Source: Euglena gracilis (lineage: Eukaryota). From it: DNA of 64,000 bases. Made by a program: the position numbers and the translations under genes. This document shows, in pieces, positions 5,424-60,700 of this stretch (positions are counted from its first letter, which is position 1; each line of letters opens with the position of its first letter). Below the pieces are notes generated by a model that made no database searches, was not told where the DNA came from, and was given only the letters and a program-made list of their open reading frames with translations. The stretch is from positions 37,061,703-37,125,702 of the forward strand of contig CP154954.1 in NCBI GenBank assembly GCA_039621445.1, written 5' to 3'.

Positions 5424-5612
5424 CCCCCCCTCCCCTAGTCGTACGACCGGGTTCCTGCAACCTGTGACCGGGGGGGGGGGGGTGGTCGTAACACCCCCAT
5501 AACCTGCAACCTGTGACCGGGGGAGGTGGTCATAACACCCCCATGACCTGCAACCTGTGGCTGGGGGGTGGTCGTAAATGAGGGGTGGTCGTACGACTAG
5601 GGGGGGGGGGGG
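5424..5612. mobile_element. Small MITE nested in telomere-like repeats (copy at 17840-18027)
   Basis: TIR cccctagtcgtacgacc/ggtcgtacgactagggg flanked by TTA; TSD length is ambiguous because the host is (ggtta)n. Confidence 0.7.
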
Positions 5613-7049
5613 TTACGGTTAGGGTTTTGGGTTTTGGGTAAGGGTTACGGTTAGGGTTAGGGTTTACCTAAACCAAAACCCAACCCTAAACCCAAACCCG
5701 AACCCAGAACCCTAACCCTAAACCCTGACCCTGACCCTGACCCTAACTCTCTAGACCCTGTGTCGACACCAGCCGTATCTTCTGACCCTGTTATGTGCTT
5801 TCCAGTGACCTAAAATACATCAGTGACCCAAAGTAGGCCAAAATAGGTGTGGATCGACCTGTTTTGCCGTGGATCGACTAACAGACAAGTACCCGTTTTG
5901 ACACACAGCATGCCCCAATTGATTCAAAAAAATGTCAAATTTTGGGGGGGGGATACAGCGCTGCTCAACCCCCCGAATTGCAAAATTTTAACAATTTTCA
6001 GCTGTTGAAAGGGGGGGGGGCGGGGGCGTGGTTTTCAAAGCCAGATTGAATGCCAAGAAATGCGGGGTGCCAAAACGTGCCACCATCCCCCGGACTGGGT
6101 CTCTGACACTAACCCTGACCCTGTTCCTTCACGAACCAGAAACCCTGCCTTTTGACCCGTCACACAGATGGTCCCAAATTACACAAAGGCAAACTTTTGC
6201 GATTGTGGGGTGGTGACCAGCAGTGGCTCGGCTGATTCTGGGGTTTAGGGGGGTGGGGAACCCAGCTGACCTGGTCCCGGGGGCTGGTGGGGCGTTCTGG
6301 CGCACCCCATTTCCTGGCATTGAGGCAATCTGGCCCCGAAAATCACGCCGCCATGCCCCCCCCCCCGATTGACGCCCAAAATTGTACCTCCCCCTCCCCA
6401 AGCCCAATGAACACTAAGGTGACAATCTAGACGGTCCGAACACCCCCTGTTCATTGGGCAAGGGTGTTCATTAGGCATGGGGGGGGGAGGTAAGCATTTT
6501 GCTGGTGAGAGACATCACCTTCATAACAATCGTCGTCTGAATCTGCGTCATCGCCTTGCAGATATTCAATTGTTTCGAAATCAGGTTTCGTCCGAAGCAT
6601 GGTGATTGCTCAATCTCAATGAATCATCATTTCTTGCAATGGATCTGCAGAAGGTGCGGAAGCAGCGTCACATGCATAGGGTGTGGTTTGGACCAGTGGC
6701 GGAACACCACATTTTCGGTTGCCAAATTGACCGAACCCAAGGTATGGAAAAAATTTTCCAAAAATCAGGCATTCCTACTGCTGAAAATTGGATTTCACAC
6801 CAAATTGAGAACCTGCTGGAAAAAAAGACCCCCCCCCCAAGTAACCGCTAAAGCGGGGAATGAGTGATTAACCATGGTTAACACGGTTAAAACGGACAGA
6901 GATTGGTTAACCAAACTTCTCACGCAAAACCCACATCATTTGATGAAAAACATTTCCTCATTGGACAAATGTTGGGCCGAAATAGCAAAATACTGACGGG
7001 GGTATTTGAGAGGTGCCTGATGGGGCACAATCCGCAGGCACCAAGGCCA

Positions 7050-15530: not shown

Positions 15531-15805
15531 GATTGATTCAAAAAAATGTCAGATTTTGGGGGGGATGCAGCGCCGCTCACCCCCCCCCCCGAATTGCAAA
15601 ATTTTGACAATTCTCAGCTGTTCAAGAGGGGCGGGGGTGTGGTTTTCAAAGCCAGATTGAATGATGGTCCCAAATTACACACACAAAAAAAGGCAAACTT
15701 TTGCGATTGTGGGGTGGTGACCAGCAGCGGCTCAGCTGATTCTGGGGTTTTTGGGGGGTGGGGAACCCAGCTGACCTGGTCCCGGGGGCTGGTGGGGCGT
15801 TTTGG

Positions 15806-18308: not shown

Positions 18309-19243
18309 CGTTTTGACACACAGCATGCCCCAATTGATTCAAAAAAATGTCAAATTTTGGGGGGGGGATACAGCGCTGCTCAACCCCCCGAATTGCAAAA
18401 TTTTAACAATTTTCAGCTGTTGAAAGGGGGGGGGGGGCGGGGCGTGGTTTTCAAAGCCAGATTGAATGCCAAGAAATGCGGGGTGCCAAAACGTGCCACC
18501 ATCCCCCGGACTGGGTCTCTGACACTAACCCTGACCCTGTTCCTTCACGAACCAGAAACCCTGCCTTTTGACCCGTCACACAGATGGTCCCAAATTACAC
18601 AAAGGCAAACTTTTGCGATTGTGGGGTGGTGACCAGCAGTGGCTCGGCTGATTCTGGGGTTTAGGGGGGTGGGGAACCCAGCTGACCTGGTCCCGGGGGC
18701 TGGTGGGGCGTTTTGGCGCACCCCATTTCCTGGCATTGAGGCAATCTGGCCCCGAAAATCACGCCGCCATGCCCCCCCCCCCGATTGACGCCCAAAATTG
18801 TACCTCCCCCTCCCCAAGCCCAATGAACACTAAGGTGACAATCTAGACGGTCCGAACACCCCCTGTTCATTGGGCAAGGGTGTTCATTAGGCATGGGGGG
18901 GGGGGGAGGTAAGCATTTTGCTGGTGAGAGACATCACCTTCATAACAATCGTCGTCTGAATCTGCGTCATCGCCTTGCAGATATTCAATTGTTTCGAAAT
19001 CAGGTTTCGTCCGAAGCATGGTGATTGCTCAATCTCAATGAATCATCATTTCTTGCAATGGATCTGCAGAAGGTGCGGAAGCAGCGTCACATGCATAGGG
19101 TGTGGTTTGGACCAGTGGCGGAACACCACATTTTCGGTTGCCAAATTGACCGAACCCAAGGTATGGAAAAAATTTTCCAAAAATCAGGCATACCTACTGC
19201 TGAAAATTGGATTTTGATTGGATTGGAATCAGTAATGAGTAAT

Positions 19244-20693
19244 GTACATCCAAAAAAGCATGTAAAATTCATGAACACTAGATCAAAACCACGGGAAGCT
19301 CAACAAATCTTAATTCATCCCCATAGAGGAATTCTGAACAGTAAGAATTTATGGCAATGAAAAATTTTCAGGAAAAAAATTTTGGACAAATATTAAAAGA
19401 TTTTATTTTGTGCTGCCAAAAAAGCGTCCAGTTTTTTTGTATTTTGTGAAATCTATACCATTTTAAGGGATTTCGAAAAAAGAAGTTTCTGACTTTTCTG
19501 GGGAATAATTCATCTTCACTGTCTGCACGTGGCTTATATTTTTCCCATCTGGTCCAAAATCTATGTTTCCCAAAGTTTCAGGTTGTGTGTTGTGTGTGGA
19601 GCAATTTTGGGTACTTATCTGTTATCGCACGACATACCCCCCCCCTTTCGGTTATCGCACTACACCCTTTTTTGGGGTTATTTAGGGTTATTTAAAGGAA
19701 TAGGGTTAGGTGCGCACATGCTACGTTGCGCTACATGGCCACGTTGCGCTACATGGCCATGTAGCGCAACATGGCCATGTAGCGCAACGTGGCCATGTAG
19801 CGCAACATTGCATGTGCGCACCTAACCCTATTCCTTCAAATAACCCTATAAAACCTAAAAATAAGGCGTCGTGCGATAACCGAAAGGGGGGGGGTATGTC
19901 GTGCGATAACAGATAAATACCCAATTTTGAGGGGTTTAACTCGAGAAGGTGGGGTAATTGAGGGTAATGAGTGGAGACTTTTTTTTGTCGGGCATTTCAC
20001 AGGCCACTATGACGTGATGATGAGAGAGTAAATTTGCACGAGTGTCAAACTTCCAGCAGGCTTTGCACAAAAAAAGGCCAAAGTTTTTGAAAAAAAATGG
20101 GGGGCCAAGACACACAAATTAAGGAACCATGTTTGCATGGAAGGAGAGCCAAACGCTGGGGGGGTCATGCATACAAAGTTGGTCACTGCAGATTGACTCC
20201 CAAGCCTGAACCTCCCACCAAATATAAGAGACCCCCGCCATAACCCACCCCCAACCTCAGACAGCATTTGGGGATTTTCGGTCCAACGCCAAATTTGATA
20301 CTGTTGCCTGGTGAAATTCAATTTGATTTTGGCATTGTTTTAGCCATTTTGGGCCCTGTTTGGCGATTGCAGAGATCAAAGGGCAAAACTCTCTTCTCCG
20401 TGTTTGGTTTCCCCCTTGGAGAAACTTAACTCTAGAAAGAAAACCCTCTGAAGACGTTCATAAACAAGAGAGAATCTCATTCATAATTGTTTGGTTGTTT
20501 AGGTCATTTGATCTTTCGGCGTGATTATTTGTGGTTTAAATTAAATAAATTGTTGTGCAACAAAAATTTTCCCATTTTAGGCCATTTTAGGCCATTTTAG
20601 GCCATTTTAGGCAGCCATTTTATGGACCCCCACCTATAGGGGGTCAAAAAGCCATTTCAGGCCATTTTAGGCCATTTTAGCTATGGGTGCTTG
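19244..20693. mobile_element. Left-truncated family H element with different internal sequence
   Basis: 19244-19447 matches 40938-41132; right end (gccattttag)n + ctatgggtgcttg; the interior lacks the AT-rich nad4-like cargo. Confidence 0.7.
19610..19921. mobile_element. Merlin-like hairpin MITE related to family B
   Basis: ggtacttatctgttatcgcacgacatacc...ggtatgtcgtgcgataacagataaatacc; perfect TSD caattttg; central 18-bp repeats (gttgcgctacatggccac-like). Confidence 0.85.
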
Positions 20694-22736
20694 GCCCCCG
20701 GGAACAGGTCGGCTGGGTTCCCCACCCCCCAAAAACCCCATTGTTGCCGGAACCGTTTGAACAAATGTCCCCCAATTGCAAACTGGCGGCGGTCAATTCG
20801 GGGTTTGCTGACCTCTCATCCTGGGCAAGAGCGCACCCCAGCCCCCCCCCTTTGTCTCCAACCTTCGATCGAATTTCAAATACCCCACTCAAATGCTTGT
20901 GGTCAAGCACACACACCTTTGTGGTGGATGGCATTCCCAATTCTCTAAAACACATCTTTCCTGTTCTTTTCCTGGAAAGCTTGCCTGAATCTCACACTTC
21001 AAAAAATGATCCAGTATTTCATCCAATTCACCGATTGCCAATTCCCTGTTTGCATCCCCCAACACAGGGTTGCCCTTTTCCAATTGTTCCCCAACGAGGG
21101 CTGCTTCAAAAGCTTTGTGTCACATTTTACAACATTTTGGTTCCCATTGACTGGCAAAAATAAAATGGGTGTCAAAAAATTGGTAAAACAAAATTGGTTG
21201 GTTGTTTTCGATTTTCGACAAACCTCGTGCCTTTTTTTGCTGAATCAAAAACACTCAATATTGTCCCTTTTGACGTGGTGAGAGACATCACCTTCATAAC
21301 AACCGTCATCCGAATCTGCGTCATCGTCTTCCAAATATTCAATTGTTTCAAAATCAGGTTTCGTCCGAAGCATGGTGATTGCTCAATCTCAATGAATCAT
21401 CATTTCTTGCAATGGATCTGCAGAAGGTGCGGAAGGAGCGTCACATGCACAGGGGGTGGTTTGGACCAGCGGGGGAACACCACATTTTCGGTCGCCAAAT
21501 CGACCGAACCCAAGATGTGGAAAATTTTTTTCCAAAATCAGGCATACCCACTACTGAAAATTGGATTTCACACCAATTTGAGAACCGGCTGGGAAAGAGG
21601 TGCTGCCTGGACCCCCACAGAGGGTGGCCAAAGCGGGGAATAAACAATTAACCGCGATTAACTGGGGGTCCCAAATTGATCAACCAAACTTCTCAAAGAA
21701 AACCACATCATCAATGCAAAGCATTTTCCACACCGGAAAAATCTTGGGCCGAAATGGCAAAATGCCAAGGGTGCCTGGGGGGGTGCCCGCCCCAGGGACC
21801 AAGCTGGGTTCCCCGTCATGGAAACCCCATTATTACCGGAACCACACCCCCGAATTGCAAACTTCAGGAATTTTTCGGGATGAATTGGTGCCTCCAGTGG
21901 CCCTTCTCCCCACCGGTTATAGCCCCTGGACTGCCGACCGCTCCTTTGGCCAACAAGCAGGGCAACACACAACTGGCATCGCCCTCAAAAGGAAAACGCC
22001 TGCCATTTGTGAGGTCAGCACTCCTTGGCCGCATAACAGCAGTGCCACACCTTCTCTGGGAAGAACGGTCCGTCGAGTGTGGCAGGGGCGTATGAGAAGC
22101 CCTGAGGGGGAGAGGAGAATGGGGAGATGAACGGTGGGGGGGGGGCACCATCAAAGACACATTCAAACACATGCACAGCCACACCCCCCTGAAAGTGAGG
22201 CCCTCCGTTTCAGCAAAAAGAAGAATTGGCAAGGATAGAGAATGAAAGAATGCCAAGTGAAGCCCAACAAACTCGAAAATTTTGATAAGATTGCGGTTTT
22301 GGTTGGGCCACAGCTGGCCGCAGCCCAACCAATGACTGCCTGCCCATCAAAACGATTTCCCTTTTTTTGGAGGAAAAATATATGCTGGGTCTTTTTTAAA
22401 AAAAATTTCACTGTCAAGTGCCGACAATTTGCAGGGGCTCACGGGGAGACCAGAATGATGTTCAAAAAACTGTCGTTCATTTGAAACGAGGTCACCATCC
22501 ACTTCAGAAAAAAAAACCGGTCAGCCACTTTTCAAAACCAATCACTCATTTCCCACCCTCCCCCCACCTGGGGGGAGTCGGTTGCTCTGGAGACACCGAG
22601 GGAAAACTGCCTCAAAAGCAATGGATTTAGGCCAAAAAACACCCAAAAAAATTCCGGAGCGGAGGGGGGAGTCCAGCCCCCCACAAAAAAAAACTCCTCA
22701 CACGGAAACCCAAACACCTCCCCACACGCGCACGCC

Positions 22737-32041: not shown

Positions 32042-35000
32042 TCAGGCGCGCGGGGGCAACGCCATGGGCACGGCGGGCTCCTTCACGCGCTGCGCTGCGC
32101 TGCAGGCCAGCGACGTCCCGACGCGCGGCGGCCCCGAGCTGCGGGGTCGGGAGGGCCCTGCGGCCCGCTTCGGCCACTGCGGCAGCCGGCGGTGGCGCCG
32201 CTGCCGCCTGGCGACCCCCGATGGATGTCCCACGGAACACAACACCGCACAAAAACCTCAACAAAACGGGGTGAATGACGTCCGGCAAACCCGTCTAACC
32301 TTCAGGGGGGAAGTCGGTTGCTCCGAAAAAACAACAAAAAGCAGGCAACACACAAACCACCACATGACCAGTGCTGCCAGTTGTGGCCCAACACTGACCA
32401 CCACCAAACATCAGCAGGGTCATCAGGATGGGTCGGGTCTGTCGCACAATAATGCAACTGCTGGCCAGGCACTTGTAACCTGCCCTGAAATTTGTTCACC
32501 ACCCGTTTGAACCTGCTCACCGAGGAGAGCTATTGCTTTGGTTGCGTGGCTTGTGATTGCTGCGCATTGGCAACCTGCTTGCTTGCTTCGGCCGCGCCGG
32601 CAGCTAGTTGCTCGCTTCGGCCGCACTCGCAGCCATTTGCCGCACCAGCGGCCATTTGCTTGCTTCGGCCACGCCGGCGGCCATTTGCTTGCTTCGGCCA
32701 CGCCGGCGGCCATTTGCTTGCTTCGGCCACGCCAGCGGCCATTTGCTTGCTTCGGCCACGCCGGCGGCCATTTGCTTGCTTCGGTCACACCAGCAGCCAT
32801 TTGCTTGCTTCGGCCGCACTCGCAGCCATTTGCTTGCTTCGGCCACGCCGGCGGCCATTTGCTTGCTTCGGCCACGCCGGCGGCCATTTGCTTGCTTCGG
32901 CCACGCCGGCGGCCATTTGCTTGCTTCGGCCACGCCGGCGGCCATTTGCTTGCTTCGGCCACGCCGGCGGCCATTTGCTTGCTTCGGCCACGCCGGCGGC
33001 CATTTGCCGGCGGCCCTTGCTTGCTTCGGCCACGCCGGCGGCCATTTGCTTGCTTCGGCCACGCCGGCGGCCATTTGCTTGCTTCGGCCACGCCGGCGGC
33101 CATTTGCTTGCTTCGGCCACGCCGGCGGCCATTTGCTTGCTTCGGCCGCACTCGCAGCCATTTGCTTGCTTCGGCCGCACTCGCAGCCATTTGCTTGCTT
33201 CGGCCACGCCGGCCATTTGCTTGCTTCGGCCACGCCAGCGGCCATTTGCTTGCTTCGGCCACGCCGGCGGCCATTTGCTTGCTTCGGCCACGCCGGCGGC
33301 CATTTGCTTGCTTCGGCCACGCCGGCGGCCATTTGCTTGCTTCGGTCACACCAGCAGCCATTTGCTTGCTTCGGCCGCACTCGCAGCCATTTGCTTGCTT
33401 CGGCCGCACTCGCAGCCATTTGCTTGCTTCGGCCACGCCGGCGGCCATTTGCTTGCTTTGGCCACGCCGGCGGCCATTTGCTTGCTTCGGCCACGCCGGC
33501 GGCCATTTGCTTGCTTCGGCCACGCCAGCGGCCATTTGCTTGCTTCGGCCACGCCGGCGGCCATTTGCTCGCTTCGGCTGCACCCGCCATTTGCTTGCTT
33601 TGGCTCCGGCAGCCATTTGTTCACCAGCCGTTTAAACCTGCTCACCAAGGAGGGCAATTGCGTTGGTTGCGTGGCTTGTGGCTTGTGGCTTTGGCAGCCT
33701 GCTTGCTCGGTTTGGCTGCGCCGGCGGCCATTTGCTTCCTTCGGACGCGCCTGCGGCCATTTGCTTGCTTCGGCCACGCCGGCGGCCATTTGCTTGCTTT
33801 GGCCACGCCGGCGGCCATTTGCTTGCTTCGGCCACGCCGGCGGCCATTTGCTTGCTTCGGCCACGCCAGCGGCCATTTGCTTGCTTCGGCCACGCCGGCG
33901 GCCATTTGCTCGCTTCGGCTGCACCCGCCATTTGCTTGCTTTGGCTCCGGCAGCCATTTGTTCACCAGCCGTTTAAACCTGCTCACCAAGGAGGGCAATT
34001 GCGTTGGTTGCGTGGCTTGTGGCTTGTGGCTTTGGCAGCCTGCTTGCTCGGTTTGGCTGCGCCGGCGGCCATTTGCTTCCTTCGGACGCGCCTGCGGCCA
34101 TTTGCTTGCTTCGGCCACGACAGCGGCCATTTGCCTACTTCGGCCGCGCCAGCAGCCACTTGCTTGCTTCGGCGACGCTGGACTTGCCACCTGCCTTGGT
34201 CCTACAACTACAACTGAGGTTTCCAGCCACCTTGGGCCAAAAGGTTAGAAGTGCCTGGCCGGGACATCATACGTCTGGTGGTGGCAGTATGTGGGCCCAT
34301 TGGCACCCTGGCAAAAGTCGCAAAAAAAAGCCCCAGGCTGAAACTCTGGAAAATGCTGGAACGTCAGTGCCAAAAATTTGGGGGAAAACAAACAGTGTCA
34401 GGAAAACAAAGATATGAAAGCAAACAAAAGAAAAAATGCAGAAATTAAAAAGTTGCACATGGTGCCGGGGGTGATGGGAGGCAGTGCCAGGGGTGGGGGG
34501 GATGGTGCTCGAAAAAAAATTTGAAAAAATTGTGCAAGGAAAAATTTGGTGATTTCCTCCCAAAACAGTGGCAAAATACCATTTTGGAAGAAGCCGCCAA
34601 ATTATTACTTTGGCGGGATTTCGCAAACCCATTCCTTCCACGCCACTTTCACCAATTTTCGCCGCCTGTCGGTGTCAAAAAAAAAAACTTGCCTGTCATC
34701 ACACCTTCGTGCTTACCCCTCTGTGACGCACGCAAAACACCCAACCGAGCTGGATCCCTGGAAGCTGGAGAGGCAATTCTACCCCATTCTTTGCGCAAGC
34801 TTCGCGGGATCGCCAGCTTTGCAGGCGATGGGACTGCTGACGCTGCCGCTGCTGCTGCCACTGCCCCGCCACTTCAGCCCACTGCCCCCCCGCTCACCAC
34901 AAACCAGGCAAACAAACACTGGTGTGGGAGTGTGAAGAGTGATTTCTGAACGCGCAAATGTTCTCAGAACCAGAATATGTGTGCGTCTGTGTGCGCACGT

Positions 35001-39624: not shown

Positions 39625-40116
39625 CAGGCTTCGATATAAGGACAGGTGGCGGGGGTGGGACCCCCCCTGCGGGCCAGGAGGTGGGGGGGGGAACACCCCC
39701 CCCCACCTAAACAACGGGGCGGTCCGGGTGACCGAAAATTTTTGACCCCCCAAAACGACCAAAAGTGCCGCTTTGGGCACTTTTTGGGCAAAAATTTGCC
39801 AAAATGCAAAAAAAATTCGGCGCAAAGCGCTGGAGGAAAAAACTGACCCTTTTAGGGGGAGTCCCGCCCCCCCCCCCCCTAGTTGCACTAAGGCTTCTTG
39901 TCTGTTTATGGCCGGCGCTAACTTCGCTTCTGGCCCAGTTTGCTGCGTGGTGAGTGGCCAGGGACCCCTTACGCCAGGGACCCCTCCCCCCGAGGGTCGG
40001 TCCGGAGCCCCCTGGCAGGTGGGGGGGGGTGTGGTCCGGACCCCCCTGCGGGCCAGGAGGGCGGGGGGGACACCCCCCCACCTAAACCATGTACGCCCTC
40101 CTTATATCAAACCCTG
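39625..40116. mobile_element. hAT-like MITE family G
   Basis: caggcttcgatataagga...tccttatatcaaaccctg; perfect TSD ggctgagg. Confidence 0.85.
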
Positions 40117-40307
40117 GGCTGAGGCCAGGGTGACTGTGGGGGGTCGGGGCCCAGGGGGGCCGGGTACGCTGCGGGGGCTGAGGCGGGGCTGCGGGGTAGC
40201 TGCCCCGGTGCCGCGCCGGGAACCCTCGCTCGGCCAGGGCGAGCCGAGGCCAAGCGAGGTCATCCGACACGGCCCGGGGTTGCCACGGACGCTGTGGGGG
40301 TAGGGGC

Positions 40308-40659
40308 CATACCATTGCTTAGCGACCCCCGGGGGGGAGGGGGGTCACTTTCCACTCCGAAAAAACCGGTCAGTCACTTTTTTTCGGCCAAGCCAGTCAG
40401 TCACTTTACCCCCCCGGGGGGGGGGGGTCAGCCACTCAGGAAAACCAGTCACTTTTTGGCCTTTCAAGGCCATTTTTGGCCAAAATTTTCTCCGGCGCCT
40501 TTGACGCCGGTTGGCCACTCAGCCACTTTTGGGTGATTTCTGGACTACCCCACCCCCCGGGGGGGGGTCAAGGCCAAAAAAATCAGTCAGTCACCCTGAA
40601 AAAACCAGTCAGTCACCCCCCTGGGGGGTGGGGTGGGACAGGTGTTAAACAATGGTCTG
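40308..40659. mobile_element. hAT-like MITE with cagtcagtcac repeats (also 42978-43334, 45948-46308)
   Basis: cataccattgctta/taaacaatggtctg; perfect TSD gtaggggc; empty site near 46515. Confidence 0.85.
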
Positions 40660-40738
40660 GTAGGGGCCCAGGGTGGCCGGGGCAGGTGGGGTGGGGTGGA
40701 TGGTGCATGTGGTTGTGGTGAGGGCTGTGGGCTGTGGC

Positions 40739-42343
40739 CAGGCACCTATAGTCAAGCCCAAAACTTCCTCATTTTAGGCCATTTTAGGCCATTTTAGACC
40801 ATTTAAGGCCATTTTAGGCCATTTTAGGCCATTTTAAGGTATAGGTGGGGGTTCTGAAATCATATGTTTTCGTTATTTTTGTCCCGAAAACTGTATCATA
40901 ACGTGTGCAAACCTTCTCTAATTAAGTTATAACAAAAGTACATCCAAAAAGCATGCAAAATTCATGAACACTGGATCAAAACCATGGGAAGCTCAACAAA
41001 TCTTAATTCATTCCCATAGAGGAATTCTGAACAGCAAGAATTTGCGGCAGTGAAAAATTTTCAGAAAAAAAATTTAACAAATATTAAAAGTTTTATTTGC
41101 ACTACCAGAAGGGCTCAGCTTTTTGTATTTTGGGGAAACTTAATACTGAAAAGAAAACCAAGTTATAAATAGGAGAGAATAATACACTAACCACACCCAT
41201 GCACCGTAATATATATTGTTTGATATAGCCAATTCATAAAAAAAATGCTTCTATGAATAATAAAAATATATTATTATCTTTCATAAAAAAAATCATAGTA
41301 TCAAATCATAATATCATTAGAGTTAGCACCATTATAAAAAATTTGTTATACATCATTCATTTCTTTATGATGATACATATTTAAAGAATAATTATTAAGA
41401 TCCATAATATAAACAAAAAATAAACTCCCAAAAAAACAATAAAAGGTGAAATATGTGAACCTAATCCTGTACCTATATACCAATAAAATATTTCACATTC
41501 TATCATATTTTATTTTTATCATGTTCAATTTTATCATATTCATATTTTATCATACTCAATTTAAAAATGATATGATTTAAAGTGGTCATAATAGTTATTA
41601 TTAACAATTACATAATTTATCAATACTATTTTTACTTAATATATATTTATTAATTTCTATTTCTGAACGTCATTAGAAAATATATATTAATAAAATTGAT
41701 AATAATAAAATACAATAATAAAATATAATAATAAAACCCACATTCAATATCCATATTAAACATAAAAAATTTGTATGATAATAAAATGTCCATTCATAAA
41801 AAAAATATTTTATATAAATTTCCTTAGAGAATTTATTATTAAATTTAGAAATTTATAACAATCCTTGTATTATATATTTCAATTGATATTTTCCAACATC
41901 TTTTGCGTTTCTTTTTCTGTCTTTTTCCCCGTGCTTCAAAACTTGCACTGTTTCATTATTTGTGAAACGGACCTTGTTCCGCACCGAAAAAAAAATGGGA
42001 GTAAGAAAAATAATTTTGTCCAAACCTTCAAAGTTCAGCTACCAAAAGGTTGGGGACTGTGGATTTTGGACTGATGCTACTTTTAATAGGGATAAAAACA
42101 TGGGCCTTGTGGGGCTGTGCTCCTCCACCAAATCCACTGTTCGCCGTCCACATTAACAAAAGACACCGAAAGTCATTGCCTCAATGGATTCAGTTGTTCA
42201 CAAAAAATTTTTGTGCAACAGAATTTTTTCCCTGAATGGATTCAGTTGTTCACAAAAAAATTTTGTGCAACAAAATTTTTCCCATTTTAGGCCATTTTAG
42301 GCCATTTTAGGCCATTTTAGGCCATTTTAGCTATAGGTGCCTG
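40739..42343. mobile_element. Non-autonomous hAT-like element (family H) carrying mitochondrial-like cargo
   Basis: 13-bp TIR caggcacctatag/ctataggtgcctg; perfect 8-bp TSD gctgtggc; subterminal (gccattttag)n arrays; empty site at ~46587-46600. Confidence 0.9.
41132..41506 (-). pseudogene. nad4: NUMT: nad4-like mitochondrial gene fragment (copy 1), inside AT-rich cargo ~41132-41885
   Basis: Reading TGA as Trp: MIECEIFYWYIGTGLGSHISPFIVFLGVYFLFILWILIIIL*ICIIIKKWMMYNKFFIMVLTLMILWFDTMIFFMKDNNIFLLFIEAFFLWIGYIKQYILRCMGVVSVLFSPIYNLVFFSVLSFP. One TAA and three in-frame TGA in 125 codons of very AT-rich DNA. Spacing resembles the ND4 D..LFY.FFE ... Y.L....SLP region. Gene identity is by eye only. Confidence 0.55.
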
Positions 42344-43399
42344 GCTGTGGCCATGCAGTCGGTGGCGGAGCAGCGGCAGCGGCTCGGGGATGGTGATGCA
42401 GCGGGCCCACTCACAGGCAGGCCCGTTTTCTTCTGCAAACACAGCCAGGGTTTTATGGAAAGCGCCAGATCTTTTTGAGATTTGGAGTATCCCCAAAATC
42501 GCAGTTTCAAATTTGGGCTTGGTTTGGGCTTCGTCCCACGACGGGTATTTTAGTGCTTTCCTTTTTGGAGGGACGGAAAAGGGCTGCTGGCAGGCTGGCC
42601 CCCAGAGGAGGTTAAATTTTCTGAAGGTCTTTCTGGTCCTGGTTGCAAGGCTCCACCCACTGCAACCCCCCCCCCCGAGGGTCGGTCCGGAGCCCGGGGT
42701 GTGGTCCGGACCCCCCTGCGGGCCAGGAGGGGTGGGGGGACACCCCCCCACCTAAACCATGTACGCCCTCCTTATATCAAACCCTGGGCTGAGGCCAGGG
42801 TGACTGTGGGGGGTCGGGGCCCAGGGGGGCCGGGTACGCTGCGGGGGCTGAGGCGGGGCTGCGGGGTAGCTGCCCCGGTGCCGCGCCGGGAACCCTCGCT
42901 CGGCCAGGGCGAGCCGAGGCCAAGCGAGGTCATCCGACACGGCCCGGGGTTGCCACGGACGCTGTGGGGGTTGGGGCCATACCATTGCTTAGCGACCCCC
43001 GGGGGGGAGGGGGGTCACTTTCCACTCCGAAAAAACCGGTCAGTCACTTTTTTTCGGCCAAGCCAGTCAGTCACTTTACCCCCCCCCAGGGGGGGGGGGT
43101 CAGCCACTCAGGAAAACCAGTCACTTTTTGGCCTTTCAAGGCCATTTTTGGCCAAAATTTTCTCCGGCGCCTTTGACGCCGGTTGGCCACTCAGCCACTT
43201 TTGGGTGATTTCTGGACTACCCCACCCCCCGGGGGGGGGGGGTCAAGGCCAAAAAAATCAGTCAGTCACCCTGAAAAAACCAGTCAGTCACCCCCCTGGG
43301 GGATGGGGTGGGACAGGTGTTAAACAATGGTCTGGTAGGGGCCCAGGTGGGGTGGGGTGGGTGGTCCATGTGGTTGTGGTGAGGGCTGTGGGCTGTGGC

Positions 43400-45001
43400 C
43401 AGGCACCTATAGTCAAGCCCAAAATTTCCTCATTTTAGGCCATTTTAGGCCATTTTAGACCATTTAAGGCCATTTTAGGCCATTTTAGGCCATTTTAAGG
43501 TATAGGTGGGGGTTCTGAAATCATATGTTTTCGTTATTTTTGTCCCGAAAACTGTATCATAACGTGTGCAAACCTTTTCTTATTAAGTTATAACAAAAGT
43601 ACATCCAAAAAGCATGCAAAATTCATGAACACTGGATCAAAACCATGGGAAGCTCAACAAATCTTAATTCATTCCCATAGAGGAATTCTGAACAGCAAGA
43701 ATTTGCGGCAGTGAAAAATTTTCAGAAAAAATTTTTAACAAATATTAAAAGTTTTATTTGCACTACCAGAAGGGCTCAGCTTTTTGTATTTTGGGGAAAC
43801 TTAATACTGAAAAGAAAACCAAGTTATAAATAGGAGAGAATAATACACTAACCACACCCATGCACCGTAATATATATTGTTTGATATAGCCAATTCATAA
43901 AAAAAATGCTTCTATGAATAATAAAAATATATTATTATCTTTCATAAAAAAAATCATAGTATCAAATCATAATATCATTAGAGTTAGCACCATTATAAAA
44001 AATTTGTTATACATCATTCATTTCTTTATGATGATACATATTTAAAGAATAATTATTAAGATCCATAATATAAACAAAAAATAAACTCCCAAAAAAACAA
44101 TAAAAGGTGAAATATGTGAACCTAATCCTGTACCTATATACCAATAAAATATTTCACATTCTATCATATTTTATTTTTATCATGTTCAATTTTATCATAT
44201 TCATATTTTATCATACTCAATTTAAAAATGATATGATTTAAAGTGGTCATAATAGTTATTATTAACAATTACATAATTTATCAATACTATTTTTACTTAA
44301 TATATATTTATTAATTTCTATTTCTAAATGTCATTAGTAAATATATATTAATAAAATTGATAATAATAAAATACAATAAAATATAATAATAAAACCCACA
44401 TTCAATATCCATATTAAACATAAAAAATTTGTATGATAATAAAATGTCCATTCATAAAAAAAATATTTTATATAAATTTCCTTAGAGAATTTATTATTAA
44501 ATTTAGAAATTTATAACAATCCTTGTATTATATATTTCAATTGATATTTTCCAACATCTTTTGCGTTTCTTTTTCTGTCTTTTTCCCCGTGCTTCAAAAC
44601 TTGCACTGTTTCATTGTTTGTGAAACGGACCTTGTTCCGCACCGAAAAAAAAATGCGAGTAAGAAAAATAATTTTGTCCAAACCTTCAAAGTTCAGCTAC
44701 CAAAAGGTTGGGGACTGTGGATTTTGGACTGATGCTACTTTTAATAGGGATAAAAACATGGGCCTTGTGGGGCTGTGCTCCTCCACCAAATCCACTGTTC
44801 GCCGTCCACATTAACAAAAGACACCGAAAGTCATTGCCTCAATGGATTCAGTTGTTCACAAAAAAATTTTGTGCAACAGAATTTTTTCCCTGAATGGATT
44901 CAGTTGTTCACAAAAAAATTTTGTGCAACAAAATTTTTCCCATTTTAGGCCATTTTAGGCCATTTTAGGCCATTTTAGGCCATTTTAGCTATAGGTGCCT
45001 G
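43400..45001. mobile_element. Family H element, second copy (by segmental duplication)
   Basis: Same TIRs, same TSD gctgtggc, same flanks and cargo as 40739-42343. Confidence 0.9.
43793..44167 (-). pseudogene. nad4: NUMT: nad4-like fragment (copy 2)
   Basis: Near-identical to copy 1 at an offset of 2661 bp; shares the internal TAA. Confidence 0.55.
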
Positions 45002-47700
45002 GCTGTGGCCATGCAGTCGGTGGCGGAGCAGCGGCAGCGGCTCGGGGATGGTGATGCAGCGGGCCCACTCACAGGCAGGCCCGTTTTCTTCTGCAAACAC
45101 AGCCAGGGTTTTATGGAAAGCGCCAGATCTTTTTGAGATTTGGAGGATCCCCAAAATCGCAGTTTCAAATTTGGGCTTGGTTTGGGCTTCGTCCCACGAC
45201 GGGTATTTTAGTGCTTTCCTTTTTGGAGGGATGGAAAAGGGCTGCTGGCAGGCTGGCCCCCAGAGGAGGTTAAATTTTCTGAAGGTGTTTCTGGTCCTGG
45301 TTGCAATTGAAAAACATATTTATGGTCCTTTATATATTCATCCCTCAAAAAGGAAAGCACTAAAATACCCATCGTGGGACGAAGCCCAAACCAAGCCCAC
45401 AGGGGAAAAACTTTTTGGGTTGCAAACAGAGCGTTCTTTAAACGACCACCCCAGGGGATTCAGCTCAGAAGCCGGAAAATTTGGGCTTGCTGACCCCTTC
45501 CCCCCCCCCAGGGGTCCCGGGCCGGAAAAGGGCTGCTGGCAGGCTGGCCCCCAGAGGAGGTCACATTTTCTGAAGGTCTTTCTGGTCCTGGTTGCAAGGC
45601 TCCACCCACGGCAACCCCCCCCCCCCCGAGGGTCGGTCCGGAGCCCCCTGGCAGGTGGGGGGGTGTGGTCCGGACCCCCCTGCGGGCCAGGAGGGGGGGG
45701 TGGGGGGACACCCCCCACCTAAACCATGTACGCCCTCCTTATATCAAACCCTGGGCTGAGGCCAGGGTGACTGTGGGGGGTCGGGGCCCAGGGGGGCCGG
45801 GTACGCTGCGGGGGCTGAGGCGGGCTGGCGGGGTTGTAGCTGCCCCGGTGCCGCGCCGGGAACCCTCGCTCGGCCAGGGCGAGCCGAGGCCAAGCGAGGT
45901 CATCCGACACGGCCCGGGGTTGCCACGGACGCTGTGGGGGTAGGGGCCATACCATTGCTTAGCGACCCCCGGGGGGGAGGGGGGTCACTTTCCACTCCGA
46001 AAAAACCGGTCAGTCACTTTTTTTCGGCCAAGCCAGTCAGTCACTTTACCCCCCCCCAGGGGGGGGGGTCAGCCACTCAGGAAAACCAGTCACTTTTTGG
46101 CCTTTCAAAGCCATTTTTGGCCAAAATTTTCTCCGGCGCCTTTGACGCCGGTTGGCCACTCAGCCACTTTTGGGTGATTTCTGGACTACCCCACCCCCCC
46201 GGGGGGGAGGGGGCGGTCAAGGCCAAAAAAATCAGTCAGTCACCCTGAAAAAACCAGTCAGTCACCCCCCCGGGGGGTGGGGTGGGACAGGTGTTAAGCA
46301 ATGGTCTGGTAGGGGCCCAGGGTGGCCGGGGGCTGTGGCCAGGGTGGTTGTGGGGGTCGGGGCCCAGGGGGGCCGGGTACGCTGCGGGGGCTGAGGCGGG
46401 GCTGCGGGGTAGCTGCCCCGGTGCCGCGCCGGGAACCCTCGCTCGGCCAGGGCGAGCCGAGGCCAAGCGAGGTCATCCGGACACGGCCCCGGGGTTGCCG
46501 GGGACGCTGTGGGGGTTGGGGCCCAGGGTGGCCGGGGCAGGTGGGGGTGGGGTGGGTGGTGTGGGTGGTTGTGGTGTGGGCTGTGGGCTGTGGCCATGCA
46601 GTCGGTGGCGGAGCAGCGGCAGCGTCGGGGATGGCGGTGCAGCGGGCTCACTCACAGGCAGGCCCGTTTTCTTCTGCAAACACAGCCAGGGTTTTATGGA
46701 AAGCGCCAGATCTTTTTGAGATTTGGAGTATCCCCAAAATCGCAGTTTCAAATTTGGGCTTGGTTTGGGCTTCGTCCCACAATGGGTATTTTAGCGCTTT
46801 CCTTTTTTGAGGGATGAATATATAAAAGACAATAAATATGTTTTTCAATGCAAATGTCAGGGGGAAAACTTTTTGGGTTGCAAGCAGGGCGTTCTTTAAA
46901 CGACCACCCCAGGGGATTCAGCTCAGAAGCCGGAAAATTTGGGCTGGCTGACCCCTTCCCCCCCCCCCAGGGGTCCCGGGCTGGAAAAGGGCTGCTGGCA
47001 GGCTGGCCCCCAGAGGAGGTCACATTTTCTGAAGGTCTTTCTGGTCCTGGTTGCAAGGCTCCACCCACGGCAACCCCCCTGGGGGGGGGGGTTGGACGGA
47101 GGTGCAGAACACCTTGCGTCAGAAGGGTGGGGGATGGTCTGCACCCCTCCCCCCCCCCTGCACACAAAACCAACCCAACCAGCACCCTGCCAGAGACCCA
47201 CCAAAAACAACAAAACAAAAATTGCACAGAGCATTGGCCCATTCTCTACCAATGTGTGTGTGCCAGGGCGTCGCTTAGCAACCCTGTGGGGGGGGGTCGA
47301 GTTCATTTGGGCTGGTTGGAAAAAGGCTGCTGACTGACGGACCCCCCCCCAAGAAGGGCAGGGATGAATGGGAAGCCTGGAGGGGGGTGGGATAGTGCTT
47401 AAAAAATTGTCTGCTTCCTTAATGCCGACAGGATGGGATTCAGCCTGAAATCCCATCAGGCTAGGGTTTGCCAACCCTGGGGGGGAAGGGGTGCCTCGGA
47501 ATGCCCTGGAGTGCCTGGGCAGACAGCCCCCCCCCCCCCCGGGGTCGGTGCCTGCCTGGCCGTGGACCAAAAAGCGCCCAACAGTGGGTTTTTCTGGGCA
47601 TCCGGCGCCTGAGGCACCGGAAGGGCCTTGGCCAAGTGCCCAGCCAGTTTTGGCCATGTCTACCCCCCCCCCGGGGTTGGATCTGCCTTGGGGTGCCTGC

Positions 47701-49184: not shown

Positions 49185-52100
49185 GGGGGCTGGTTGGCTG
49201 TGATGTGATGCACCATCATTCAGGGAGGACAACAATCGGAGTACAGGATCATTGCGCATTTTTGGGCCTCCCCCCCCCACGGGAAGCACGGTGTTTCAGG
49301 TGTCCCTGCGGCATTGCCGAAAAAATTCATCGCGTTTGAAGTTGGGTGAACGGTTCGCTCCTTTGCTGGGGAGATTCTGGAGTATTCCTGCTTGGGTTTT
49401 GAGTTAGGATTTAGGGGAGGTGGGTTGGCACCTGCTGCCGGGGGGAGGTGGGTTGGGGGAGCTGGCTTGGTGCAATATTTACGGAGCCGAAAATGAGGGA
49501 CACTCCGGGGGGGTGCCCACCCTTGCCCCCCAATCCAACCAAAAAAGAAGGCTTCTCGGATCGGAGGTGCATTGCATCACAGTCAGCCCGTGGCATAGCC
49601 AGGCCAGAACAGGAAACCCGGGGATTGCAACCCTCCCACCCACACCCATGCGCATGGTCTGCGGCAATTCATAAAATTCAGACTATGGCACCAAAGGGGC
49701 CGGGGCAAATTTGCAAAGCGAACTGTTCAAGTACCACCTGCCACCCAACCCCAATTGACAAATCTTTCCTTTCGGCGCTTCGCACCAAAACTTTGGGCAA
49801 ATGAGATGGGATGGGGGCAAATTGGTGGGGCAGGGAAATTATTGTGCAAAAATACCCCCCCCCCCAAAATAGCACGTCGGCCAAATCTTGGTGGATTTTG
49901 GACTTATTCGGCCCAGAACTTTGCGTCGGGCCAAAAATCTGGCCAAAGAGCCGAAAAGGTGTCCCCTGACCTGATTGGGGGGGGGGCATAATGTCGTTGG
50001 ACATGGGGGGGGGCACAACGTGGGGATGAGGGGACCCTCCCACCCAAAGAAAAAGACCAGGCCATTCCGGTTCTGGTCTGGGTACGGAGGGGGGGGCTGG
50101 CTGGGTAATCACCGTGAGAGACGAGTTTGCTTCAATGGCCAAAGATGAAACAAATAAATACCAAGGCCCCCCCATATAAGACCCCTTCGGGGTGTTGGCT
50201 TCCGGGGCCTCATATGGGGGGGGCGTGGTAATTGGCCAAACCCCAGCCTTCCCAAATGCCGAATCTCCCCTGCCATGGAAATTTCAAACACAACTTCATT
50301 GGGGACTGGCAATTGCTTTTCTTCCTGCAATGTGTGCGGGTTTTCATGGGCCTTGAAAGCTATAATAACATTTTTGTGTGGCTTGTGCTTACGGTGGGTG
50401 CTAGAAGGTGCCTGCCCCAGCAGGCACACCGGCACACCCCCCGGGGGGGTCCGGGGGGACCCAGAAAATTTTCATTGAAAATAGCCTCTTCCGGGCCCCG
50501 GCGCCTTCGGCGCCAGGGTCGGAGGGGAATGCCTGCTATGGTCAGGTGCCCCCCCAAAAACCTCACCTCCCCCCCGGGGGGGGGTCGGATCGGGTGGTAT
50601 AGGGGCCTGCCCCAAGCAGCCCCCCCCCCCCGTGGGGCAGGCACCCGACTGAGCACAAGCCTGATTCCAAACTCTGTTTCTTCACTCATTCAAAGAAGAA
50701 AACAAAGAAGGGGAAAAATCAACAAGGGAATCCAGTCAAAACTCAACCCTCCAGGGATTACCCAGCCAGGAGGGGGAATCATGGCACAAAGTGGAGCCCC
50801 CATGCCCCCCCCCATGCCCCATGCCCCAATACCCCCCCGTACCCCCCCCCATACCCCGTACCCCCCCATACCCTGTACCCCCCCACACCCCCTACCCCCC
50901 CCATACCCCAATTTTTTTTGCCTGAAACCATGCTTTTTGGCCTCCCGGACCCGTAAAACCTGTTTTCGCACCGAAATTGAGTGCCTTTCGGTGTTTGAGT
51001 CAAAAAATGGGCAAAAAAGTCGGAAAAATTCCGAAAAATTTTTGTTTGAAACCATGCTTTTCAGCCTCCCAGACCCGGAAAACCTGTTTTCGAGCCAAAA
51101 ATGACATATGAAACTGTTCGAGTGCCCAGGGCCCCGGACCCCCCCCCCCAGCAACAAAATAAGCCTCTACCGACTTTTTCTGTGGGCAAATCACGCGTCG
51201 TATGAAACTGTTCGAGTGTCCGGGGGCCATAAACTTCATGAAAAACATCCCCAAACCCTCCCCCCCCCACGCCCCCCCTGCACCCCCCATATCCCAGGTA
51301 TGGGGCCCCACTTTGTGCCATATGTGGGGGGGGGGGTGTTGTTCCCCCCATTCTGCTCCTCCACCACGCCCATGGGCACACTGGGTGCCAACCCCACAGT
51401 CTGATCGATAGACAGTCCAATCGGATTGTGCCAAGGATTGCAAGCAGAGTCATTCTCAGGAAACAAAAATGATAATTTGATCAATGTGCAAACATGTGCA
51501 TGCACATAGTGGTGCATATATGGTGGAAATATAATGTATATTTTATATGTATTTGTATCTATCTATCTCTATCTCGATCTCCATCAGCACGCGTACACTG
51601 CGCACATTTACATCTTTCGTGTGCAAACGTTAGTGTGTTTGAGTGCATGTCTGCAAGGTGGACATAAATTTATAATGCAAGGTATTACAATCCTTGGGTG
51701 GGTGGACCTGCGCGTGGGCAACAATGCTGGATCAACCACAGGGCTGCACAAGGAAAGCCATGTGGGCACCCGTTTGTTTCTCAAGGACTGGACCCCCAGT
51801 GTCCAGGGGAGCCCAGCCGCAGACAGCTGGGAAACAGGCAAAAAAAAACTGAATCCAGCCAGGTTGGCATTCGGAAGCCAAAATTTGGAGGCAAGAAACC
51901 CCCACAATCTCCCCAAAAATGCCATTTTTGGTCATCTTTGAGCAAACACTTCCTAGCGCAATGCATCGGGAAAAAAGGTTTCGTCCAGCCAGCTTCTTTG
52001 GACTGGCCAACACTTTTATCCAGCGGAACCCTCTGTGGAGGGTCCGCAGCCCGGCAGGGAAATGCTGGGAGGCTGGACCCCCCCCCCCAGGGGGAACAGG

Positions 52101-57269: not shown

Positions 57270-57340
<71 letters not shown>

Positions 57341-57658
57341 GTAATAATAATAATAATGATGATGATGATGATGATGATGATGGTAATAATAATAATAATG
57401 ATGATGATGATGATGATGATGATGGTAATAATAATAATAATGATGATGATGATGATGATGATGATGGTAATAATAATAATAATGATGATGATGATGATGA
57501 TGATGGTAATAATAATAATAATGATGATGATGATGATGATGATGATGATAATAAGAAGAAGAAGAAGAAGAAGAATAAGAATAAGAATAAGAATAAGAAT
57601 AAGAATAAGAATAAGAATAATAATGATGATGATGATGATAATGATAATAATAGCAATA

Positions 57659-57712
<54 letters not shown>

Positions 57713-57721
57713 GCAACAATA

Positions 57722-57786
<65 letters not shown>

Positions 57787-60700
57787 GACAATAATGATGA
57801 TGACGATGATGATGATGATGAAAAAAGGAAAATATTCAACATCTCAACAAAACATGTTGACTCGATTTGGCTGGGGGTCAACAGCACCAATCTAACCCCC
57901 CAGCACAGCAAAAAAAAACCAGGCTTACAATGTTTCAGCCAAATTCCTCTGAATGGGAGTGAAACGCAACGCTGGCAGTAATTCAAACCTGACCCAGGAA
58001 GCCGGCTCCACAAACTCCGGGTTGTGCTCCCAAATTTCACCTTTCCGTTTCTCTGACCCCAAATGCCGACGCCACTCGGCCCTGTGCGTCCAGCCCGCGG
58101 CGACGATGGGGGCGAGCAGCAGGGGCACCAGCCACCAGCTGCGGACCTGTGAGAGGGGAAGTGGTATGAGCTTTGTGATAATTCCCCCTCGCTGCCTGGG
58201 AAAATGGCAACCAAAAAAAATGCGGTAAAAAATGTACGATGTTCTGCGAGTCAACCCACAAAATGCAAAACATTTGGGGGGCAACGTCAGAGGATCAGGC
58301 TTCTTTTCATCAACCTGGGGGGGGGGGTATTGTGCCTCTCGGAGCCTACCAGCCAGGTCATTTTTTAGAGGCCATTTTTGGGCCATTCGGCGTCAGGGGG
58401 TGTGCTGTGGCGCCAACCCACCCCAAACCCCGACTCCCCGGGTCGAAAATGCCCTACCCCTGCCTGCCAATAGCACCCCCCCCGGGGGGTGCGCATTGCA
58501 AAGAATCAAACAGAAACCCATGTGCATCCCTCGCCATCGTTATCGCCTTTAGAAAGCTGCATTTCACCAAATCTGTCTTCTTTTGAATTTTATCAGTTTT
58601 TTAATTCATTCCGGAGAAATTTGTGGAGACGTGAGCGAAGATCAGGCGGATGTGGGGCGCAAGCAATGACATACCGTTAGCGGTGCGCGGGGCGGTCGTT
58701 CCCTCGCTGCCTCACGCGCCAGCAGCGCGCTCTCGAACTGTGAGAGGCAGGGGCATTTGAGGTTGTAAATCTGAAACACAGCCTGGGAGTGTCCGGACCC
58801 CCATCCAGGCTTCTTTTAAGACCCCCGGGGGGGGTCCCCCCACCCACCCAGGGTGGCGCGGGACCCCGGGGGGGGACCCCAAAATCGGGCCCGTTAAAGG
58901 CAATTTTCAAAAATTTTCGGTGCTTCGCGCCGAAAAGGTATACCCGGCGCGGGACCCACCCCCCGGGGGGTCCGGCCCCGGACCCCCCCCCACCCACCAG
59001 ACATTCATTTAGTGTGGCTCACAAAAGATGTGTGAACCACAAAATTTTTTTTGGTGTCAACAGGTGAACCACAAAAAAACTCTCGGTGTCCACGGTGAAC
59101 CACAAAATGACAACGTTGGTATACCACACTGAATAAATGTCTGGCACTCACCCTCCCTCCCCCCCCCGGGGGGGTCTGCTGACTTAAAAAGAAGCCTGCC
59201 CCCATCCCTCGGGCAGGGTATTAAATGAGTGTTGGGGGGGGTTGGATTGTGCAAAAAAATTTCTGGCAACGGAAAAAACCAAAAAATCGAATTTTCGAAA
59301 AAAAAATTTTGAAGAATCAGTCAAACAATGCACCACCCATTTTTTATTCTTTCTGGGTTTCCGGGGGTCCCAGACCCCTCGGTCTGAAGGGGGGGTCTGG
59401 ACCCACCAGGGTGGGTCCAGGTGGCACCCTCCCCCCGGGGGGTCTAACCCCTCTTTCCCCGCACCCCCCCCCCTCCCGCAAGACCACTGTTCACTCAACA
59501 CAGGGGAAAAACTTCTCCATCGGGCAAATGACAAAAGGTCGACAGAATTTTTGGTCTCGGGGGAAAATCGAGGGCAAAACGAGCAATTTTTCATTGTCAA
59601 AAAGACCTTGACCCTTACCTTTGCCCAAACCCTTTTTGAAACTAGAAAATCGGGAGGGAGAAAAAAACAAAATGCAACAACAACAATAACAACAACAACA
59701 ACAACAGACATAAAAACACAAATTTTATCAAAATAGAAAAACACAAATAATGCAAAAAAAACATTTGCGTTCCCCTTGCCTTCCCCTCCCCTTGCTAAAA
59801 CTAACGCTTGACACTTTGTTACTGCCAGTTGAGTGAAGATCCAGCACACCCCCGATCCATTTGTGAACCCGGACAAACCCCAAACGCACCGACCTCCACA
59901 CAGTCCCGTGGCACGGGGTCTTCTGAGTTAGTAATGGGCCTGGACACCATGAAAGTGCTAAAAATAGCACTTTCGGCGCCTTCAGCGCCGAAAAGCATAT
60001 CCCACCCCCCTCCGGTGGGACCCCCAGGGGGGGGGGCTCGGCCGGACCCACCCACCCTACCCCAGGGTTCGATATAAGGAGAGGAGGGGGGGGGTGGTCC
60101 GGACCCCCCTGCAGGCCAGGAGGGGGGGGGGACACCCCCCCCACCTGAACCATGTACGCCTCCTCATATCAAACCCTTCCCCCCCCCCCCCCCCCCACCG
60201 GGCAGGGTTCGATATAAGGAGGGGGGGGGGGTCCAGACCCCCCCCCCTGCGGGGCAGGAGGGGGGGGGGGGGCCACCTAAACAGTGGCGCGGTCAGGGTG
60301 ACCGATTTTCGGCCCAGCGCAAAGCGCCGGGCCGAAAAATTTTGACCCCCCAAGACGACCAAAAGTGCCATTTTGGGCACTTTTTGGGCAAAAATTGGCC
60401 AAAAATGCAAAAAAATTTCGGCGCAAAGCGCCGGAGGAAAAAATTGCCCCTTTTTGGGGGGGGGTCCCGGGTACCCCCCCCGAGGGTCGGTCCGGACCCC
60501 CCTTGCAGGTGGGGGGGGGGGTGGTCCGGACCCCCCCTGCAGGCCAGGGAGGGGGGGGGGGGGGGGGGACACCCCCCCACCTAAACCATGTACGCCCTCC
60601 TTATATCGAACCCTGCCCCCGGGGTCCACGACCAAAAAAACCCCTGTCCCCCACAGGTGGCTTTTGAAGAGAACTGTCCAGGTTGAATCCAGAATTCCAG

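Follow-up and report, generated by a model that had tools for sequence, protein, structure and literature searches.

Nuclear copies of mitochondrial or plastid DNA (NUMTs and NUPTs) have been reported next to or inside transposable elements in plants (PMC7037861), and the Pack-TYPE or Pack-TIR elements (Pack-MULE, Pack-CACTA, Pack-hAT) are described as non-autonomous transposons with terminal inverted repeats (TIRs) that hold foreign, once-coding DNA (PMC12187468). Here we analyse a stretch of 64,000 nucleotides of Euglena gracilis DNA (assembly GCA_039621445.1, contig CP154954.1, positions 37,061,703 to 37,125,702), referred to as the window, in which a 1.6-kb TIR element, present in two copies, encloses an AT-rich cargo that resembles the mitochondrial gene for ATP synthase subunit a. 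Our preferred explanation, to which we assign a probability of roughly 0.78, is that the cargo is a NUMT of subunit a inside a non-autonomous TIR element, and that the unit containing both was then duplicated in tandem. NUMTs near transposable elements and gene capture of the Pack type are both known, and the locus is a new example of such kinds.

Comparison with each of these systems shows what is shared and what is not. Like NUMTs, the cargo is a non-functional fragment of a mitochondrial DNA (mtDNA) gene, of organellar base composition, apparently lying in nuclear repeat DNA; unlike them, it is found within the borders of a transposon that is defined by TIRs and a target site duplication (TSD) and has a visible empty site. 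Our literature searches brought up no earlier account of a Euglena NUMT. As in Pack-TYPE elements, TIRs and a TSD surround DNA foreign to the transposon family, but the cargo here is organellar where theirs are nuclear gene fragments, and read depth leans here against transposition after capture. We found no organellar cargo in the portions of the Pack-TYPE literature searched. Finally, the element has in common with non-autonomous hAT elements, including MITEs (miniature transposable elements with inverted repeats), its short TIRs beginning with CAG, an 8-bp TSD, subterminal repeats, the absence of coding capacity and the many copies of its ends. It differs from them in that the CATTTTAGGC arrays are direct, not inverted, between the two ends, and in that the fifth TIR base and the TSD depart from the hAT consensus motifs.

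The element was delimited by its ends. A pattern search of the window placed the 13-mer CAGGCACCTATAG, without mismatch, at 40739-40751 and 43400-43412 on the plus strand and at 42331-42343 and 44989-45001 on the minus strand. When up to two mismatches were allowed, six matches were found in the window against 0.70 expected, a number reached in none of 100 shuffles. The octamer GCTGTGGC is duplicated around both copies, at 40731-40738 and 42344-42351 for copy 1 (both TSDs read from the sequence) and at 43392-43399 and 45002-45009 for copy 2. Copy 1 spans 40739-42343 (1605 bp) and copy 2, on the plus strand, 43400-45001 (1602 bp, with its cargo at about 43842-44543); 14 aligned positions differ between them, corresponding to 11 substitutions and one 3-nt deletion. 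Both copies have common flanks, as they sit in tandem units (40026-42648 and 42696-45306) that are 98.4% identical and recur with a period of 2.67 kb. A third, more diverged repeat unit (45519-46816) is unoccupied and preserves the uninterrupted target at 46585-46605, with a single GCTGTGGC at 46587-46594. From this paralogous empty site it is evident that the 1.6-kb unit was inserted as a whole. A preliminary description of the window, made from the sequence alone, had proposed a 1.6-kb element with 13-bp TIRs and a perfect 8-bp TSD, the empty site and the shared flanks of both copies, and all of these are borne out.

The base composition of the element is uneven. The flanks have a GC content of 58-66%, the left and right arms of 34.2% and 38.4%, and the cargo at 41181-41885 of only 17.9%. 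The core of about 750 bp described earlier as very AT-rich is indeed so (41132-41885, 754 nt, 18.7% GC), and its degree of AT-richness is matched in the window by just two further islands, a (TGA)n microsatellite and the corresponding part of copy 2. The mtDNA of E. gracilis has a G+C content of about 25%, and we count a cargo at 17.9% GC between flanks at 58-66% in favour of a mitochondrial origin.

To identify the cargo, we compared its minus-strand translations by phmmer with the sequences of solved structures in the PDB (177,635 distinct ones; threshold E≤10). The frame-2 translation matched two of these sequences, both of them E. gracilis mitochondrial chains: 6tdu_F, annotated as "ATP synthase subunit a" (query 55-247 aligned with chain 6-185, E=4.9e-20), and 8iuf_N1, annotated as "ND1" (670 aa; E=4.3e-19, over the same N-terminal residues). 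Frame 0 matched 6tdu_F as well (E=1.5e-6, and E=0.047 for a longer frame-0 translation). At the same threshold the whole frame-1 translation gave no PDB match, and likenesses noticed by eye in that frame (TTLNHII; IYYG..WLV) have no support on their own. Nor did any match come from a frame on the plus strand of this stretch, which served as a control for composition. The alignments contain long exact runs, of 14 out of 14 and 10 out of 10 residues, and also IGTGLG and ISPFIVF. The two structures are described as the E. gracilis mitochondrial ATP synthase (6TDU) and respiratory supercomplex (8IUF; PMC10884005), and subunit a, subunit 8 and nad1 are reported to form a single open reading frame (ORF) on a mitochondrial contig of this organism (PMC6930080). 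This fused frame explains why both 6tdu_F and 8iuf_N1 were matched. Judged by these alignments, the cargo derives from the Euglena mitochondrial gene that joins subunit a, subunit 8 and nad1, of which it represents the 5′ part, and not from nad4, so that the earlier proposal of mitochondrion-derived DNA inside a TIR element with TSD and empty site holds with a different gene. Other searches added nothing to this identification. BLAST found no match to the cargo (41181-41885) elsewhere in the window except in copy 2 and in its own low-complexity sequence; no Rfam match was seen on 40600-42500 at E≤1, hence no rRNA or intron signal; and metagenome pattern scans returned 428 matches of which none was confirmed, with no match for a degenerate DNA pattern.

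The borders of the cargo could be placed by comparison with a sibling element on the plus strand at 19231-20693, which has backbone modules in common with copy 1. BLAST similarity between the two ends at 41140 of copy 1, and 41130-41180 aligns with 20416-20475 of the sibling with a local score of 25, compared with 10.9 +/- 1.7 and a maximum of 18 in 300 shuffles. This second match implies that the backbone reaches about 41180 and that the left cargo junction lies there, not at about 41132 where it had first been drawn; the "SFP" motif that had been taken to mark the end of the cargo belongs to a stretch of element backbone. Mitochondrial homology ends at 41178-41179, exactly at this backbone limit. 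The stretch homologous to residues 6-185 of subunit a, as defined by phmmer against the PDB, is 41178-41756 on the minus strand. The right border at 41885 was set by composition, and the 130 nt at 41757-41885, which lie outside the protein homology, are presumably the mitochondrial upstream region. The minus-strand cargo at 41181-41885, based on composition and protein homology, includes these approximately 130 nt. Beyond it, the right arm (41886-42343, plus strand, ending in the TIR at 42331-42343) is assigned to the backbone because its end matches the sibling and because depth over it sums to about 1e5 in each of two public DNA runs. The left arm (40739-41180, plus strand, beginning with the TIR at 40739-40751) is supported by the sibling matches.

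The copy of subunit a is heavily decayed. Compared with the E. gracilis a-8-nad1 frame (6TDU chain F; 8IUF chain N1), residues 6-185 align, with the long exact runs mentioned above, but the cargo is only about 75% identical in the best blocks and has frameshifts, stops, additional nucleotides and a truncated end. Homology is found in frame 2 at 41756-41604, in frame 0 at 41509-41432, in frame 2 again at 41420-41304, in frame 0 at 41302-41264 and finally in frame 2 at 41270-41190. Approximately 47 extra nt are present at 41556-41510 relative to subunit a, and reading of the codons reveals a tandem duplication of 13 nt at the frame switch at 41312-41285. Stops occur in the homologous frame, as a TAA at 41348-41346 and as a TAA-TGA pair near 41672. 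Arg178, in helix 5, is reported to be conserved in subunit a, and its position in the cargo is occupied by H (frame 2) or W (frame 1). Homology stops at about residue 185 of 274, so the copy takes in the 5′ two-thirds of subunit a and the subunit 8 and nad1 parts are absent. Given the frameshifts, the in-frame stops, the loss of a conserved arginine and the truncation, the cargo is a pseudogene fragment of ATP synthase subunit a (atp6) and not a gene.

A minus-strand frame of 125 codons with one TAA and three TGA had earlier been put forward as a trace of a mitochondrial gene in which TGA encodes tryptophan. The stops are as described, and the frame is longer, at 135 codons (41509-41105). Frames of 135 codons with one TAA or TAG allowed appeared in 5 of 1000 mononucleotide shuffles, and 92 uninterrupted codons in 47 of 1000; such a frame is only mildly unusual and proves nothing alone. 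Furthermore, the TAA of this frame and no fewer than two of its three TGA codons lie off the homologous frame (the third TGA falls at the frame switch, where the 13-nt duplication is), and those Trp codons that line up with a conserved Trp read TGG. With the stops largely off-frame and TGG at the conserved positions, the argument for TGA as tryptophan fails. The cox1 gene of E. gracilis is said, going by the title of a 1997 report by Tessier, to be free of genetic-code modifications.

We then turned to public reads. Parts of the stretch are contained in 20 public runs of a single organism, from 17 studies, four of which were compared with it: X1 and X2, which are DNA contigs (short unitigs) from different studies, X1 being possibly the source sample; X16, a small run of either RNA or DNA; and X21, consisting of raw RNA reads. 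All depth figures are summed unitig depths, and the contigs described are among the 24 records listed of approximately 63,900, so that the depth comparisons are indicative. Flank contigs with exact matches have a depth per window occurrence of 170-256 in X1 and of 90-269 in X2. In X2, a contig covering 44454-44593 with no differences crosses the right cargo/backbone junction of copy 2, with at least 31 letters on each side; its depth of 230 over two window occurrences gives 115 per occurrence. A similar contig in X1 (44438-44562) has a depth of 496, that is, 248 per occurrence, and extends only 19 letters past 44543. No contig bridging the left cargo junction was present among the 24 records listed. 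That the junction depth per occurrence is close to that of the flanks argues against cargo-bearing copies elsewhere, and suggests that the form with cargo is confined to these flanks. In the roughly 5% of X21 that was covered, no reads fell on the cargo bins 41185-41895 and 44029-44502, and few on the element ends. In X16 the element ends are present with almost no cargo, from which no inference was drawn.

The interior of the cargo behaves differently, exceeding the flanks in depth by a factor of 10-150 (bin totals of 4,000-38,000 in X1 and of 4,000-22,000 in X2). At 41430, a single contig lacking two homopolymer nucleotides contributes 4317 of 4404 depth units in X1 and 1985 of 2028 in X2, and codon reading shows that this 2-nt loss restores continuity from frame 0 to frame 2 (SPFIVF-G..FFVYIMD). 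There is hence an abundant relative of the cargo that is at least 95% identical to it, is not joined to the element backbone and is more intact at 41430. The dominant cargo-like read sequence also reads A and not G at 41665, as copy 2 does, and differs from the window copy at 41237 and 41285 (X1, X2). The mtDNA of E. gracilis is reported to hold numerous pseudogene fragments (PMC4700960), and the abundant relative is probably, though by no means surely, mitochondrial DNA, perhaps one of these fragments. A part of it may be other nuclear copies.

Several points weigh against our explanation. The homology is at the protein level only, and to E. gracilis chains only. Over the five best blocks the identity comes to about 75% (91 of 121 columns, counted by hand), from which it follows that the source would not be the functional E. 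gracilis gene as deposited. The frame-2 HMMER score of 75.7 bits comes with a composition-bias term of 39.3, and two short frame-1 pieces gave, alone, no PDB match at E≤10. No Pfam family was found at E≤10 in any minus frame (four cargo translations), neither Proton_antipo_M nor ATP-synt_A, and no match emerged at E≤0.01 when a cargo translation was queried against a large protein collection (237 and 377 candidates). As for the element, the junction letters can also be read as a 10-bp TSD with a 12-bp TIR, and the TSD length rests on one independent insertion. Lastly, the conclusion that the cargo has not been dispersed is soft, coming from summed unitig depths with 24 of approximately 63,900 records listed, among which just one contig bridges a cargo junction with at least 31 letters on both sides. 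Against these points, E. gracilis subunit a is described as the most divergent subunit a known (PMC6930080), which fits the lack of a Pfam match. We interpret the long exact runs as homology and not as a product of AT-rich composition, despite the large bias term. The 8-bp TSD is the reading that gives the longest inverted repeat.

On this account the locus arose in the following way. The element inserted into a 2.67-kb repeat unit and generated an 8-bp target duplication. A fragment of mtDNA of about 705 bp, comprising the upstream region and the first 185 or so codons of subunit a, which may have been taken up before or after the element reached this site, came to lie between the backbone at about 41180 and that at 41886, and the occupied repeat unit was later duplicated in tandem to give the two copies. 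NUMTs usually enter by end-joining repair of breaks, and we infer that the mitochondrial fragment took this route too, the break being one inside a copy of the element. Alternatively, it could have entered by two-element capture, as in Pack-type elements (PMC12187468).

The element is in all appearance a non-autonomous TIR cut-and-paste transposon, and its superfamily assignment is tentative. No Pfam domain, transposases included, was found above threshold in the 134 stop-to-stop ORFs of at least 125 aa starting beyond 15,600 (the satellite region being left out), and no transposase was found in the 12 frames of the two arms. Two matches below threshold were rejected, one to ORC6_2nd in an arm frame (19.5 bits, cutoff 27) and one to DUF7218 in a window ORF (25.3 bits, cutoff 27). 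An 8-bp TSD with ends beginning CAG is typical of hAT elements, whose terminal consensus is YARNG. Here, GCTGTGGC is doubled around each copy and occurs once in the empty site, which counts as one independent insertion, and the ends read CAGGC, so that the first four bases fit the consensus and the fifth, a C in place of G, does not. The TSD and the CAG ends suggest hAT as the leading guess. Membership of another TIR superfamily, for instance a Mutator-like (10-bp TSD) or P-like one, is nonetheless a real possibility at somewhat less than even odds, given the fifth base, the 10-bp reading of the junction and the failure to find a hAT transposase among the ORFs and arm frames scanned. An 8-bp TSD is moreover not specific to hAT, since Merlin families in E. 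gracilis are reported to produce TSDs of this length (8-9 bp for the superfamily; PMC8101967). The TIRs of Merlin, however, are reported to begin with GG (PMC8101967), and the ends here begin with CAGG at an 8-bp TSD; GG ends would require a mismatched 12-bp TSD, and Merlin was set aside.

Capture of the Pack type is the next alternative. According to it, the element took up the fragment at a different locus and moved with this cargo to the present site; it may have further copies with cargo elsewhere, and would in that way disperse organelle DNA. In favour of this reading, perfect TIRs and a TSD enclose the complete 1.6-kb unit together with its cargo, and the empty site has none of it; the left end of the element looks like an entire mini-element whose inner end, at 40840-40851, is degraded, a likeness that fits the two-element capture model (PMC12187468); and some of the excess depth of the cargo interior in X1 and X2 could represent nuclear copies. 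On the other hand, only two copies are seen, with common flanks, the sibling has no cargo, and the junction contig has the same depth per occurrence as the flanks, so the excess interior depth is not joined to the backbone. The preliminary description had envisaged a Pack-type dispersal of organelle DNA, and these same observations (flanks shared by the only copies, junction depth equal to flank depth in X1 and X2) speak against it. We regard capture elsewhere followed by transposition as unlikely. The broader proposition that the cargo was acquired elsewhere, that the element is a vehicle for organellar DNA in the euglenid nucleus and that part of the excess depth comes from nuclear copies appears to us slightly more doubtful still.

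A NUMT inside the element is also to be preferred over an artefact of assembly, in which organellar reads would have been misjoined into a nuclear repeat. The locus is highly repetitive and cargo-like sequences are far deeper than the flanks, which speaks for a chimera. However, the two copies differ at 14 positions, the cargo departs from the mitochondrial protein by frameshifts and stops, the abundant relative differs by 2 nt at 41430 (making the window copy a distinct sequence of low depth), and a junction-bridging contig exists in a run from an independent study (X2), all of which makes a chimera very improbable. Least credible of all is a nad4-like cargo read with TGA as tryptophan, for although nad4 is reported to be encoded in E. 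gracilis mtDNA (PMC4700960) and the 135-codon frame with its three TGA and one TAA has a hydrophobic look, those stops fall largely where homology uses another frame, the conserved tryptophans are encoded by TGG, a Pfam check of the three minus frames at E≤10 found no family and hence no Proton_antipo_M, and the PDB matches are to subunit a and ND1, with no ND4 chain.

The sibling and the arms of the element provide information on the family as a whole. The sibling is without a left TIR, has a right TIR with two mismatches, and carries no mitochondrial cargo. In BLAST, 40925-41140 of copy 1 corresponds to 19231-19454 of the sibling (85%), and 42254-42343 to the right end of the sibling (92-93%). 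The sibling has in addition 0.96 kb of its own (19455-20415), bracketed by TTGTGAAA and TTGGAGAAA and situated at another position of the backbone than the cargo. It had been described as an alternative cargo, and looks instead like a separate nested insertion. Inside it is a near-perfect palindrome of about 330 bp (19603-19930) whose inverted arms are long and enclose a centre of nested inverted repeats; it looks like a foldback or MITE-like insertion.

Arrays of CATTTTAGGC lie close to both ends of copy 1 in the same, direct orientation: about seven units at 40769-40838 in the left arm and further units at 42282-42330 in the right arm (both on the plus strand, as a repeat reading). In the right arm, a direct duplication of about 52 bp near 42185-42284 (plus strand) was also read from the sequence. 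In the left arm, TATAGGTGGGGG at 40840-40851 on the plus strand, again read from the sequence, is a degenerate inner end that makes the left end resemble a complete mini-element, and its complement CCCCCACCTATAG is found at 20627-20639, within the right end of the sibling. This suggests that the ends of the family may be built from nested or fused mini-elements. Some read joints leap over about 1.48-1.51 kb from one CATTTTAGGC array to the other; their sides are just 20-22 letters long, and they were not taken as evidence for mini-elements. A further TIR-like match at 50597-50609, with two mismatches, has no partner and was put down to chance. The element family is very abundant in the genome: the arms reach a summed depth of about 1e5 in two DNA runs, compared with about 250 per occurrence for the flanks, and in X1 the values are 1.7e5-2.3e5 for the left arm and 1.2e5-4.2e5 for the right arm. 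The right arm also holds the palindromic GTTCACAAAAAATTTTTGTGCAAC. A 32-bp unit with a short palindrome (GTGAACCACAAAAATTTTTTTGGTG...) forms two arrays 1.1 kb apart, at 16178-16304 and 17364-17509, and its motif GTGAACCACAAAAATTTTTTTGGTG resembles GTTCACAAAAAATTTTTGTGCAAC. These two arrays may mark the termini of a different element.

The remainder of the window is rich in tandem repeats. A satellite of 198-199 bp forms two arrays, at 1415-4534 (15.8 copies) and 7074-15524 (42.8 copies), with about 85% matches and a total of about 11.5 kb. A GC-rich 29-bp tandem repeat at 32648-33945 (44.8 copies) yields long spurious ORFs on both strands, and the (TGA)n microsatellite, the sole other strongly AT-rich island of the window, extends over 57270-57821 with approximately 182 units. 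No Rfam family was found across the whole window at gathering scores. From this result and from the Pfam scan of the 134 ORFs in 15600-64000, the window looks like repeat DNA devoid of genes.

The locus is a clean case, dated by its structure, of organellar DNA passing to the nucleus in a euglenid. It provides an order of events, in which insertion of the element and the arrival of a mitochondrial fragment within it both preceded the tandem duplication. It also reveals a family of DNA transposons with proof in the form of TIRs, TSD and empty site, in a genome for which hardly any catalogue of mobile elements exists. On the practical side, nuclear copies of the a-8-nad1 gene could confuse the assembly of mtDNA or calls of heteroplasmy. 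If cargo-bearing copies were to be found at other sites, this would amount to a transposon-mediated spread of organellar DNA.

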